Positions 15,855 to 18,550 of a DNA stretch of 64,000 bases are shown here, piece by piece (the first letter of the stretch is position 1; each line of letters starts with the position of its first letter). Location: assembly GCA_035541455.1 (NCBI GenBank), contig DATKNH010000020.1, forward strand, positions 4,985-68,984, written 5' to 3'. The DNA is from Syntrophorhabdales bacterium. Lineage in GTDB: Bacteria; Desulfobacterota; Syntrophorhabdia; Syntrophorhabdales; WCHB1-27. A program made the translations under genes and the position numbers. The notes under the pieces are model-generated. The model was given only the letters and a program-made list of their open reading frames with translations, did not search any database and was not told the DNA's origin.

Positions 15855-18550
15855 CGGAAAAGAATGTTCTCGTAGTGGGCGGCGGCATCGCAGGCATAAC
15901 TGCCGCGCTGGAGCTTGCCTCCTGCGGAATTAAAGTGACACTCCTGGAAGCTGGTCCGTCCATCGGCGGACGGATGATACAGCTTGACAAGACATTCCCC
16001 ACTCTTGACTGTTCTACGTGCACGCTTTCACCGAAAATGGTTGAGGTTTCGCTCAATCCCAACATCGAAATAATCTCGTGGGCGAAGCCTCTGGCTGTGG
16101 CAAAGGAAGGCGCAGGCTTCAAGGTTACTGTTCTCAAGAAGACGCGTTACGTTGATACCAAGAAGTGTACTGCCTGTGGTTCCTGCTGGCCGGCCTGTCC
16201 GGTGGTGATGAAAAGCGAGTTCAACATGGGCACAGGCCCGAGGAAAGCAATCTATATCCCTTTTCCGCAGGCCATACCCAACAAAGCAAGCATTGATAAA
16301 CGGGAAGAACGCCCGTGCAAGGCAGCGTGTGTGGACGCATGTCCTATACATACCAATGTGCTCGGGTATCTGAAGCATATAAGCGAGGGTCGGTTCGCCG
16401 ACGCATATATGCTTATCAGAGCGACAAACCCATTTCCATCCGTTTGCGGCCGGGTCTGCTATGCCCCGTGTGAAAGGGTGTGTAACAGGGGACAACTGGA
16501 TGATTCCCTGGCGATCCGCGACCTGAAACGCTTCGCAGTCGACCAGTTTGACATCAATTCGCTTGTTCTGCCACAGATTACGAAGACTGAAAAAAGAGTA
16601 GCCGTGATCGGTGCCGGACCGGCAGGATTGGCCTGTGCGGAAGCGCTTGCAGTGGAGGGGCACGAAGTGACCGTTTTTGAGGCGCTTCCTGAACCAGGAG
16701 GTATGTTACGGTACGCCATACCTGAATATAGACTTCCCAAGGAGGAATTGCGGAAAGAGATCGGCTATATCACGAAGCTTGGTGTTGAGATCCGATGCGG
16801 TGTTGAGGTCGGGAAGGATATAGCGCTCGAAACAATGAGAGATGAGTATGACGCGGTCTTTATAAGCACCGGCGCGCCCAGAGGGTTGCCTTTAGAGGTG
16901 GAAGGAGAAGATCTCGCCGGTGTTATTGATGGCATACGCTTTCTCCGTGCAGTAAATAGCGGAGATTCAATGAAAACAGGTAGCCGCGTGGCTGTTATCG
17001 GCGGCGGCAATACTGCCATCGACTGTGCAAGAACAGTCAGACGTCTCGGAAGCGAGTCGGTACAGCTCATATACAGGAGAACGCGGGATGAGATGCCCGC
17101 GGCCAAAGAAGAAATAGACGCCCTTCTTCATGAAGGCATAGATATAGCCTTTCTCACAACGCCGGTGCGGTTCTATGGAAAAGAAGGGAACCTTTCAGCC
17201 ATGGAGTGCATCCGAATGGAACTGGGAGATGCGGACGAAAGCGGAAGGAGACGACCGGTACCAGTCAAGGGCTCTGAGTTTACCACGCCTGTGGACACTG
17301 TTATCACAGCGCTGGGCCAGGTAACGCAGACAGGGTTTGCGCACGATGTCGGTGTCGTGCTGTCACCCAAAGGGACGATCGAGATTGATGCGTCCACGGG
17401 AATGACCAACGTGCAAGCAGTGTTTGCAGGCGGCGACGTGTGCACAGGGCCTGCCTACGTGGTTGATGCCATTGCAGCGGGTCAGCGAGCGGCTTTGTCG
17501 ATTACGCGCTACCTGAAGAACGAAGAGGTGGTCACACATAACGGAAGAATGAAAGAGCCGGAGAGGCTGACAGAGCCTGAAATAGCTGACCTGAAAGAGA
17601 GATTTCAGCGACTGGAGCGGGTCCCCATGCCCGAGGCGGAAACCGAAAAAAGAGTACGGACCTTTGGTGAAGTGGCGATCGGGTATAGCGCTCGAGAAGC
17701 CAGGGCCGAAGCCTCCCGTTGCCTCGCGGGCCAGATAGAAGGCTGCATACAGTGTGGAGAATGTGAGAGACGTTGTGAAGTCAAGGCCGTGGATCACACA
17801 ATGAAGGATGAGATCGCAGATATAACGTGTGACAGCATAGTGCTGGCTCCCGGGTTTGACCTGTACGATCCGACTGAAAAGAGAGAATACGGATACGGAA
17901 AGCTTCAAGGAGTTGTCACCGGGATCGAATTCGAGAGAATCTGTTCGGTTACCGGGCCGACCGGGGGAGACATTCTGTATAATGGAAAGATTCCAAAACG
18001 CTTCTACTTCATTCAATGTGTCGGCTCAAGAGATAGGCAGAGCGGAGCGCGTTTCTGCTCCAGGGTATGCTGCATGTACACGGCAAAGCATGCGAGCATC
18101 GTGAAAGACAGAATTAAAGATGCGAAGGTCTATATATCCTACATAGACGTGAGGGCTTACGGCAAGGGGTACGAAGAGTTTTACAAGAGCACCCAGGAGA
18201 GCGGCACGTTCTACATACGCGGCATACCCGGAGAAATAACGAAGAGTGAAAAGGGATTACTGGTGAAGGTGGAGGACATACTGAGCGGCGAGGTGGTCGA
18301 GACAGAAGTGGATCTTGTTGTGCTCGCGACGGGCGTAAGACCTCGCAAAGAGACAGAAGAGCTTTGCACTATGATGTCAATAGAACGCGACGATTACGGT
18401 TTCATTAAGATCGATTCGCTCCATGCCTCAAAGACGAATGAAGATGGCATCTTCGTATGCGGGATGGCGTCGGGCCCCAAGGACATTCCGGATACCGTTG
18501 CCTCTGCCGGAGAAGCTGCGGCAACGTGCATGGAATATATACAGGGGTAG
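15851..18550 (+). CDS. Large HdrA-like flavoprotein with an inserted GltD/NfnB-like NAD(P)H:FAD module (HdrL type)
   Basis: ATGA overlap with etfA. N-terminal Rossmann fold [18 protein letters not shown] and [12 protein letters not shown]. A GltD-like block follows (..[34 protein letters not shown].., [35 protein letters not shown]). The HdrA signature then resumes ([24 protein letters not shown]). Confidence 0.85.
   Translation: [899 protein letters not shown]

Follow-up and report, generated by a model that had tools for sequence, protein, structure and literature searches.

HdrA-based complexes constitute one of the four known families of flavin-based electron-bifurcating systems, and their connection to the bacterial NAD(P)H pool is so far known from gene maps only. 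Here we analyzed a large HdrA homolog, HdrL, encoded in a 64,000-nucleotide stretch of DNA (hereafter, the window) from a Syntrophorhabdales bacterium (contig DATKNH010000020.1 of GenBank assembly GCA_035541455.1, positions 4,985 to 68,984 of the forward strand). This protein is an HdrA thioredoxin-reductase-like flavin adenine dinucleotide (FAD) core with a complete NfnB/NfnL/GltD-type module lodged between the two halves of its ferredoxin domain. HdrL of Desulfobacterium autotrophicum HRM2 was described by Strittmatter et al. (2009) and proposed to feed NADH electrons into Hdr chemistry, each hdrL gene in that organism being followed by mvhD (PMC2702500); the original prediction, made from the window sequence alone, had named this Desulfobacterium protein correctly. 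HdrABC/HdrL of Syntrophobacter fumaroxidans (Sfum_0819-0824) were abundant under sulfidogenic conditions and were proposed to confurcate (PMC5947623). For the anaerobic methanotrophic (ANME) archaea of group ANME-1, HdrA9-11 were published as having "2 electron bifurcation sites" with NADPH as carrier (Chadwick et al. 2022, PMC9012536). A 2025 survey introduced the name "type III HdrA" for this architecture, now published from ANME-1 and Bathyarchaeota, and predicted that the GltD domain blocks access of ferredoxin, and that the clusters of the ferredoxin domain have been repurposed for NADH as a mid-potential donor or acceptor; class A9 in this survey derives from A6, which itself has neither the N-terminal nor the C-terminal domain (PMC12054007). 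In the nearest solved homolog of the module, NfnA of the Caldicellulosiruptor saccharolyticus (Csac) NfnABC complex, NADPH is only oxidized at the NfnA FAD, and bifurcation takes place at a distant B1-FMN-C1 site, where FMN is flavin mononucleotide (PMC11829005).

The HdrL architecture and the idea of NAD(P)H use or of two sites are therefore already in print for archaeal and sulfate-reducer homologs. What is modestly new at this locus is a domain-complementary HdrA2 partner, for which fusions exist, and a soluble ten-gene operon linked to electron-transferring flavoprotein (ETF). The HdrL gene and its parts are as follows.

15851-18550, plus strand: gene for HdrL (type III HdrA), 899 aa, assigned by Pfam, PDB sequence search, AlphaFold2 model and Foldseek
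15851-16303, plus strand: HdrA part 1, residues 1-151, aligned to 5odc_A; FAD-binding GGGIAG, C54/C57 and the first half of the ferredoxin domain
16304-16570, plus strand: insert, helical Fe-S domain of the Fer4_20 type (Pfam, ligand alignment)
16583-17524, plus strand: insert, FAD domain (GAGPAG at 254) and NAD(P)H domain (GGGNTA at 384) (Pfam, alignment, Foldseek)
17525-17737, plus strand: insert, linker holding an invariant helix (EASRC624); homologs are the linker of Bfu-type NfnA/StnA and NCBIfam NF009410
17738-18547, plus strand: HdrA part 2, residues 630-899; second half of the ferredoxin domain, the rest of the thioredoxin-reductase-like domain, the ligands of the FAD-proximal [4Fe-4S] cluster and E695/K746

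The open reading frame (ORF) at 15851-18550 is translated without interruption into 899 aa. Pfam searches detected FAD-binding signatures at the extreme N-terminus, Fer4_20 (the Fe-S domain of GltD and dihydropyrimidine dehydrogenase, DPD) at residues 156-234 (E 5e-20) and a complete Pyr_redox_2 domain (pyridine-nucleotide-disulfide oxidoreductase) at residues 249-544 (E 3.5e-53). When the PDB was searched by sequence, residues 154-640 matched the Bfu-type NfnA of Csac (9bov_A, E 2.5e-125, 44% identity), and the same middle block matched Thermococcus sibiricus NfnA (9n5u_A, 8.9e-119), StnA of Sporomusa ovata (8oh5_C, 1e-107), Thermotoga maritima NfnB (4ylf_B, residues 159-558, 4.9e-104), Pyrococcus furiosus NfnL (5jca_L, residues 158-558, 5.8e-98) and GltD (6s6s_G, residues 159-557, 2.3e-67). 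The flanks matched methanogen HdrA in two pieces, with E-values of about 1e-113 to 1e-117. The original prediction of an HdrA interrupted by a complete GltD/NfnB-like module thus agrees with Pfam, PDB and Foldseek results, and non-homology of the middle block, which it had named as a possible refutation, did not hold. All motifs that it quoted are present in HdrL, for example at residues 6-23, 106-117, 250-260, 380-393 and 720-743, as are RFADAYML...CNRG at 181-214 and FAGGDV at 525-530.

HdrL scored below the curated NCBIfam cut-offs for HdrA (equivalog models NF041778, 368.8 against 1400; NF041891, 388.1 against 1300; NF040770, 463.7 against 1100) and for GltD (TIGR01317, 256.6 against 447.7; TIGR01318, 320.1 against 482.95; TIGR01316, 398.9 against 471.75), whereas the module together with its linker passed the cut-off of NF009410 (536.9 against 516). 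Glutamate synthase small subunit GltD was rejected as an identity because these cut-offs were missed and a Pfam scan found no GltB-like gene among the approximately 40 ORFs of the window. By its A9-like domain pattern, the ORF is best described as a bacterial HdrL, or "type III HdrA".

A residue-level alignment located the insertion. HdrL residues 5-151 correspond to positions 145-291 of methanogen HdrA (5odc_A) and residues 630-891 to positions 291-559, and the inserted ferredoxin domain of 5ODC occupies about positions 237-315; therefore, the foreign block entered at a single position within that domain. It sits between the two CxxCxxCxxxC motifs (C106-C116 and C632-C642), so that both halves of the inserted ferredoxin domain are kept and the insert splits this domain rather than replacing it, the latter being an option raised in the original prediction. 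That prediction placed the block at nucleotides 16304-17515, or residues 152-555. The start was right, but the end was set too early: the linker at 559-629, which it missed, is homologous to the same region of NfnA/StnA and NF009410, and thus the inserted unit comprises 478 aa, residues 152-629, and ends at nucleotide 17737. HdrL has neither the N-terminal domain of HdrA nor the C-terminal ferredoxin domain and spans 5ODC positions ~145 to ~559; the canonical four-domain architecture of methanogen HdrA was not found in this alignment.

Conservation of cofactor sites was analyzed in an alignment of 78 full-length HdrL relatives, which included 37 close sequences and 41 at 43-52% identity (43-83% over the whole range). 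Cysteines 54, 57, 106, 109, 112, 116, 160, 164, 203, 207, 211, 624, 632, 635, 638, 642, 723, 736, 740 and 741 and E208 are invariant or nearly so. C54/C57, which correspond to C194/C197 of 5ODC, occur in 74-78 sequences, four gapped rows being the only exceptions, and E208 is kept in 76 of the 78. The GGGNxA...YRR...EMPA motif and E695/K746 are also conserved. E695/K746, the equivalents of E356/K409 of 5ODC, are invariant even in a larger alignment of 126 sequences; such residues are only proposed markers of bifurcation-competent HdrA (PMC12054007). The GxGxxG motif of the HdrA FAD domain is GGGIAG from residue 10, and C723/C736/C740/C741 match the ligands of the FAD-proximal [4Fe-4S] cluster of 5ODC (C386/C399/C403/C404).

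Candidate ligands of the two [4Fe-4S] clusters in the insert are C156, C160, C164, C199, C203, C207, E208 and C211. C156 and C199 are restricted to the clade of the window protein, and two distant HdrL proteins (P0129 and P0132) have extra cysteines in an RCLxCGxC stretch instead. In the nucleotide domain, the GGGNTA...YRR motif (second part, residues 407-417) is nearly residue-for-residue that of the NADPH-oxidizing Csac NfnA, which suggests, short of proof, that the insert prefers NADPH. Altogether HdrL is predicted to hold two FAD and five [4Fe-4S] clusters and to give one Cys to a cluster of its partner. We also observed that an EAxRCLxC helix (HdrL residues 617-627, nucleotides 17699-17731) follows the FAD/NAD(P)H domains in HdrL, in Bfu-type NfnA and in the NF009410 family, and that it has the same position in P0192, P0265, P0132 and P0129. 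In canonical GltD an RCxxC motif opens the Fe-S domain. Given this layout, the order of cluster ligands in HdrL would amount to an apparent circular permutation.

An AlphaFold2 model of HdrL built from the 126-sequence alignment, which took in fused forms at 43-48% identity, had a predicted local distance difference test score (pLDDT) of 90.7 and a predicted template modeling score (pTM) of 0.85. An earlier model from 43 close homologs (73-83% identity) was discarded (pLDDT 68.7, pTM 0.47, all Fe-S regions below 50). Foldseek superposed the model on NfnB (4ylf_B; template modeling score, TM, 0.82; root mean square deviation, rmsd, 2.0; ~42% identity), NfnL (5jca_L, TM 0.80) and Csac NfnA (9bov_A, rmsd 2.3 Å over 496 columns). 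It also aligned a 428-residue HdrA core (8rwn_A) with a TM of 0.94. Since the latter alignment crosses the insertion, an intact HdrA core and an intact, though split, ferredoxin domain are predicted.

HdrL is the fourth gene of a co-directional group at 13035-24673, most start and stop codons of which overlap or abut. The other genes are listed below.

13035-14120, plus strand: soluble HdrD/TfrB-like protein with 2x[4Fe-4S] and two CCG domains, no transmembrane segment
14122-14901, plus strand: EtfB (Pfam, PDB sequence search)
14898-15854, plus strand: EtfA; start/stop overlap with EtfB, and its stop overlaps the HdrL start (ATGA)
18567-20240, plus strand: HdrA2, 557 aa, with CHCGHN N-terminal domain, thioredoxin-reductase-like domain and C-terminal 2x[4Fe-4S] ferredoxin domain
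20313-20732, plus strand: MvhD/FlpD-type [2Fe-2S] protein (PF02662, E 7.5e-44)
20713-21720, plus strand: FdhB-like Fe-S protein, 335 aa, matching the C-terminal Fe-S half of the F420-type FdhB of Fdh-Hdr (9t1s_M, 6.2e-29; 7bkb_E, 6.3e-23)
21736-22254, plus strand: HdrC-like 2x[4Fe-4S] protein (Pfam, NCBIfam)
22251-22937, plus strand: HdrB-like protein, two full CCG motifs; M31 of the ORF used as start
22934-24673, plus strand: HdrA3, divergent HdrA-like flavoprotein (Pfam; alignment to 5odc_A, E 4.2e-30)

None of the ten proteins has a transmembrane segment. In the FdhB-like protein no FrhB/FdhB flavin or F420 domains were detected, and its first ~140 residues had no match. Three HdrA paralogs in one operon had been predicted, the one at 18567-20240 with the CHCGHN domain and the one at 22934-24673 without it, and both points stand.

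HdrA2 (5odc_A, E 1.6e-120) aligns to 5ODC in two segments, residues 3-230 to positions 6-234 and residues 240-538 to positions 320-634, and has neither the inserted ferredoxin domain nor equivalents of C194/C197; the stretch aligned to these cysteines, LRNVWPGGKEGRDII, contains no Cys. The domain sets of HdrL and HdrA2 are exactly complementary, as HdrL has no N-terminal domain and carries C54/C57. The HdrA2 pattern was conserved in all 33 orthologous loci examined. In addition, a profile search yielded 120 clusters of proteins of 1,460-1,680 aa. One of these, P0297 (1,476 aa), which was the sole fusion compared, consists of HdrL and HdrA2 joined in the same order: residues 6-893 are 47% identical to HdrL and residues 918-1475 are 36% identical to HdrA2, and the HdrA2-like part likewise has the CHCG N-terminal domain and neither the inserted ferredoxin domain nor a Cys197 equivalent. 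As a Rosetta stone, this natural fusion is evidence that the two proteins belong to a single unit, and an HdrL/HdrA2 pseudo-dimer is likely from these sequence relationships.

In the methanogen HdrA homodimer, the N-terminal-domain cluster of each protomer has Cys197 of its neighbor as a ligand, and because of this ligation across protomers the tandem HdrAs of ANME, for which the same rule of complementarity was described, were inferred to be obligate heterodimers (PMC9012536). The window pair resembles the ANME HdrA5/6, 12/13 and 3/4 pairs ("type II HdrA") in that the copy without the N-terminal domain keeps Cys197 and in that fused versions exist. It differs in that the Cys197-bearing copy also holds the NfnB-like insert and the sole inserted ferredoxin domain.

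The third paralog, HdrA3, has neither the N-terminal nor the inserted ferredoxin domain and retains the C-terminal 2x[4Fe-4S] domain, ahead of which there is an extra stretch of ~190 aa (residues ~320-500). K409 is replaced by Arg in both HdrA2 and HdrA3, and E356 by Asp in HdrA3. Pairwise identities were 36% (HdrL core and HdrA2), 27% (HdrL core and HdrA3) and 28% (HdrA2 and HdrA3).

The complete gene order (HdrD-like, EtfB, EtfA, HdrL, HdrA2, MvhD, FdhB-like, HdrC, HdrB, HdrA3) recurs in about 25-35 loci of a Syntrophorhabdaceae-like clade at 63-82% identity, to which, among the loci compared, the upstream EtfBA and HdrD-like genes are confined. More distant HdrL loci, like that of S. fumaroxidans, retain no more than HdrL-MvhD-FeS-HdrA(-HdrB). 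HdrL-(HdrA2)-MvhD was present in nearly all loci long enough to show MvhD, which in the window lies one gene further downstream of HdrL because HdrA2 intervenes. An acyl-CoA dehydrogenase, an AMP-forming ligase and a tripartite ATP-independent periplasmic (TRAP) transporter are often found beside the ten-gene cluster in related loci, and the window has the following genes.

6893-8110, minus strand: acyl-CoA dehydrogenase, probable start M24
8493-10046, plus strand: AMP-forming CoA ligase
10073-12983, plus strand: TRAP transporter DctPQM

Our best explanation for the locus as a whole, which we regard as reasonably probable, is that the insert serves as a port for pyridine nucleotides, connected by Fe-S clusters to a bifurcating core of the HdrA type. 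The insert FAD would exchange hydride with NAD(P)(H), probably NADPH, and single electrons would then pass through the two NfnB-type clusters to the two clusters of the split ferredoxin domain. HdrL would pair with the adjacent HdrA2 as a pseudo-homodimer, to which it would contribute the inserted ferredoxin domain and Cys57, which corresponds to Cys197. From the split ferredoxin clusters, electrons would move to the HdrA2 N-domain cluster, completed by HdrL Cys57, and on to the HdrA2 FAD; the NAD(P)H wire would thereby reach the HdrA2 flavin by the branch that serves free ferredoxin in methanogens. Bifurcation or confurcation would occur at an HdrA-type FAD and not at the insert FAD. The coupled partners would be NAD(P)(H) at mid potential, a high-potential couple at a CCG site (on HdrBC and/or on the HdrD-like protein, to which EtfAB would pass electrons from acyl-CoA dehydrogenase) and a low-potential partner, ferredoxin or similar, reached via MvhD and the FdhB-like protein. 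In a probable syntroph such as this bacterium, the likely direction would be confurcation, in which acyl-CoA electrons (via ETF) and reduced ferredoxin together reduce NADP+ in a soluble complex.

Two observations argue that the insert is a port and not a second bifurcation site: the nearest solved homolog, Csac NfnA, is an NADPH entry with remote bifurcation, and no NfnA/NfnS-type partner ([2Fe-2S] plus FAD) was found by Pfam among the ten operon proteins and ~30 other ORFs of the window. NfnB bifurcates only alongside such a partner, and GltD and DPD use the fold of the insert in a non-bifurcating manner. The acyl-CoA/ferredoxin/NADPH task, or its reverse, is suggested by the genomic linkage of ETF, acyl-CoA dehydrogenase, CoA ligase and TRAP transporter. 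For NAD(P)H as the mid-potential partner, published proposals agree (PMC2702500, PMC5947623, PMC12054007). A built-in pyridine-nucleotide port had also been suggested in the original prediction, and it is the natural reading.

Several points, however, weigh against this explanation. The insert sits on the low-potential (ferredoxin) exit of methanogen HdrA and not on the MvhD donor side, and if that branch keeps very low potentials, NAD(P)+ is not the mid-potential partner. The scheme gives the FAD of HdrL itself only one Fe-S neighbor and assigns no role to it or to HdrA3. The NfnB ligand pattern, including E208, and 42% identity to NfnB/NfnL leave some probability to a second bifurcating flavin. 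Direction, nucleotide specificity and partners of HdrL are all inferred; the NADPH assignment comes only from motif identity with Csac NfnA, and archaeal type III HdrA was predicted from its GXGXXG motif to use NAD+ (PMC12054007). Moreover, we found no purification, activity or structure of any HdrL in the papers searched.

Alternatively, HdrL could be part of a linear, non-bifurcating NAD(P)H:(hetero)disulfide or NAD(P)H:ETF oxidoreductase without ferredoxin coupling, in which electrons would flow from NAD(P)H through the insert and an Fe-S chain to the HdrA FAD and then to a CCG-type site, or in reverse, and the HdrA paralogs would serve as wiring or scaffold. Electron transfer from NAD(P)H to a disulfide is exergonic and needs no bifurcation, and HdrA-like proteins are present in non-bifurcating systems such as QmoA and the sHdr of sulfur oxidizers. 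The Arg in place of K409 in HdrA2 and HdrA3 and the Asp in place of E356 in HdrA3 fit such a role, as does the ETF, which looks non-bifurcating (EtfB is closest to non-bifurcating ETFs, with 9.3e-35 for Methylophilus methylotrophus versus 5.6e-23 for CarD). However, HdrL has both K409/E356 equivalents, all three HdrA branches are present between HdrL and HdrA2, and the conserved MvhD and FdhB-like Fe-S protein imply a third redox partner. In addition, raising electrons from acyl-CoA oxidation via ETF (near 0 mV) to NAD(P)H is strongly endergonic unless a second donor of low potential takes part. We consider linear electron transfer unlikely.

The original prediction suggested another possibility, in line with Chadwick et al., namely that one polypeptide may carry two potentially bifurcating flavins. 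The insert FAD would then split the electrons of NADPH as in NfnAB, and the HdrA FAD would bifurcate independently. The low-potential branch would lead from the two [4Fe-4S] clusters of the insert to the split ferredoxin domain, and the high-potential branch to a nearby cluster on a different subunit, such as the [2Fe-2S] of MvhD, which accompanies HdrL in almost all loci. Geometrically this is tidy, as both flavins would send their low-potential electrons to the ferredoxin-domain clusters, and the resemblance to NfnB/NfnL is close in sequence (42% identity), in structure (TM 0.82 and 0.80, as above) and in the Cys/Glu ligand set with E208, with E695/K746 retained at the HdrA FAD. Yet the NfnA proteins of Csac and T. 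sibiricus and StnA of S. ovata (1e-125 to 1e-107) outscore NfnB (1e-104), the Csac module has been described as a non-bifurcating NADPH entry site (PMC11829005), and the sequence does not separate the bifurcating NfnB/NfnL flavin from the flavins of non-bifurcating homologs (Csac NfnA, GltD, DPD). No NfnA/NfnS-like subunit was found in the operon or elsewhere in the window by the Pfam scan. In solved Hdr complexes, MvhD docks on HdrA and not on a GltD-like module. A bifurcating second flavin is thus not supported by our data, and the two-flavin arrangement seems quite improbable.

Finally, the possibility that HdrL is an assembly chimera or fused pseudogene, with HdrA and GltD-like parts of different genes joined by misassembly, is refuted by the distribution of the architecture and retains a negligible probability, since the frame is continuous, GC content and skew are even over the whole ORF, more than 120 clusters (90% identity), among them hits on Mb-scale contigs, are 73-83% identical to HdrL over its whole length, a 50%-identity library holds, among its best 150 representatives, at least 44 that match from residue 20 or less to residue 880 or more in one stretch, 78 loci of many phyla keep all cofactor ligands, and the model is a confident single-chain fold.

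In contigs with one genome per species, 554 of 600 candidate stretches were confirmed as HdrL relatives. The best 80 belonged to Syntrophorhabdaceae/Syntrophorhabdales (up to 82%), Syntrophus, Desulfobacterales, Syntrophobacteraceae, Chloroflexi, Ignavibacteriaceae, Terriglobales, Spirochaetes and one Bathyarchaeota metagenome-assembled genome. A stand-alone protein, P0192 (533 aa), contains a half-ferredoxin motif, the NfnB-like module and a second half-ferredoxin motif. Because proteins of this type exist, HdrA may have exchanged its own inserted ferredoxin domain for a complete "split ferredoxin plus NfnB" unit. Relatives of 1,650-1,840 aa (P0271-P0296), whose best local alignments cover only 55-61% of HdrL and one of which has an additional MvhD (PF02662) domain, seem to combine the same modules in bigger fusions.

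If the port reading is carried one step further, the ten-gene unit could be a membrane-independent confurcating machine of Syntrophorhabdaceae-type syntrophs, in which high-potential electrons from acyl-CoA oxidation, delivered by ETF and a CCG-type site, and reduced ferredoxin yield NADPH via the HdrL port; two flavin bifurcation sites might then function in series in the HdrL/HdrA2 pseudo-dimer. We offer this only tentatively and hold it to be doubtful. Syntrophomonas and Syntrophus employ menaquinone-loop reverse electron transport, to which such a soluble unit would, if true, be an alternative. Although the locus adds no new principle, it bears on the uphill movement of acyl-CoA-derived electrons in syntrophs, and its Cys-only HdrL, separate complementary partner, ETF module and cultured relative, Syntrophorhabdus, make it a practical candidate for the first biochemistry and cryo-electron microscopy of an HdrL.

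Other parts of the window were also inspected. Directly upstream of the acyl-CoA dehydrogenase and Etf-Hdr region, plus-strand genes at 898-6844 code for a CCG-domain protein (429 aa) and a FAD_binding_4 protein resembling GlcD/D-lactate dehydrogenase (537 aa), behind which lie genes for a PAS histidine kinase and a response regulator of the sigma-54 type. This upstream group may regulate that region. The only match to a sigma-54 -24/-12 element before the operon was a minus-strand site with one mismatch, TGGCACGGCACTTGTA at 8091-8106, which lies ~50 nt upstream of the acyl-CoA dehydrogenase start (M24). As a sigma-54 promoter it is only suggestive, about two such matches per window being expected by chance. 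On the minus strand at 25092-37345, the operon is followed by genes for KdtA, an MsbA-like ABC transporter, LpxB, LpxA, LpxD and BamA, and these housekeeping outer-membrane and lipid A genes on the opposite strand confirm that the host is diderm and set the downstream boundary of the operon at ~24.7 kb. A 646-aa enzyme resembling 2,4-dienoyl-CoA reductase, with an FMN domain of the old yellow enzyme type and FAD/NAD(P) binding, is encoded at 48304-50244 on the plus strand; dienoyl-CoA oxidoreductases that act in the anaerobic degradation of aromatic compounds belong to its family. Class II benzoyl-CoA reductase (Bam) was rejected as an identity for the system, as neither a BamB-type tungsten subunit nor NuoEFG-like subunits were found in the window.

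Among the closest described systems are those of D. autotrophicum and S. fumaroxidans, in which HdrL is likewise a large, soluble fusion of HdrA and glutamate synthase small subunit that has an NAD(P)H site. Its gene is associated with hdrA/hdrCB, and mvhD and a gene for an FdhB-like Fe-S protein come after it. One D. autotrophicum locus also has hdrL and hdrA in tandem, like the window, and loci of Desulfobacterales and Syntrophobacteraceae, in which HdrL is 43-45% identical to that of the window, keep HdrL-MvhD-FeS-HdrA. However, two of the three D. autotrophicum HdrL proteins contain selenocysteine, whereas all Fe-S ligands of the window protein are Cys, and most of the distant HdrL proteins in the loci compared have ~150 extra N-terminal residues (as judged from stop-to-stop ORFs of ~1,130-1,150 aa), a domain that here resides on the separate HdrA2. 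The DsrC and sulfite-reduction partners proposed in sulfate reducers were not found in the window.

With ANME-1 HdrA9/10/11 the window protein shares an NfnB/GltD-like insertion of ~500 aa inside the inserted ferredoxin domain and retained K409/E356 equivalents and, with the A6-derived HdrA9 class, the absence of the N-terminal and C-terminal ferredoxin domains. The archaeal proteins are rare (nine sequences found in one survey) and occur in methane-metabolizing hosts that have CoM-S-S-CoB, the heterodisulfide of coenzymes M and B, whereas the window clade is bacterial and abundant. While NAD+ was assigned to type III HdrA from GXGXXG, the window HdrL has GGGNTA...YRR, as in the NADPH-dependent Csac NfnA. 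Linkage to ETF, which is not reported for ANME-1 or type III HdrA, is present at the window locus.

The methanogen MvhADG-HdrABC and Fdh-Hdr complexes (5ODC, 7BKB, 8RVU) share with the window operon the HdrA FAD domain and its proximal cluster, MvhD, an FdhB-related protein, HdrB with two CCG motifs and HdrC. In contrast, the window operon has no catalytic subunit of hydrogenase or formate dehydrogenase, and HdrA functions are spread over three paralogs; coenzymes M and B are unlikely substrates in a bacterium. NfnAB (NfnSL; 4YLF, 5JCA) resembles the insert in its two [4Fe-4S] clusters, FAD, NADPH site and the Glu beside the third Cys of the second motif. NfnB/NfnL is, however, a free subunit with an NfnA/NfnS partner, whereas the window module is embedded and has no such partner in the window. 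The RC(xxC) ligand helix precedes the nucleotide domains in NfnB/NfnL and follows them in HdrL, and the NfnB/NfnL flavin bifurcates, whereas the insert flavin of HdrL is only a candidate for such a role.

The best match to the insert, in both sequence and structure, is with the Bfu-type NfnABC/StnABC complexes (9BOV, 9N5U, 8OH5; PMC11829005, PMC12018979, PMC10482914). Bfu-type NfnA has the same linker with an EASRCL helix behind the nucleotide domains and the same CxxxCxxxCP and CxxxCExxC ligand patterns, to which the window HdrL adds Cys199, as in T. maritima NfnB. In the Bfu-type complexes, the module is likewise part of a larger Fe-S polypeptide, and the bifurcation site that it supplies with electrons lies far away. 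The difference lies in the host: in Bfu-type NfnABC it is a NuoG/Fdh-like scaffold, with bifurcation at FMN in BfuBC, whereas in the window it is HdrA with its FAD.

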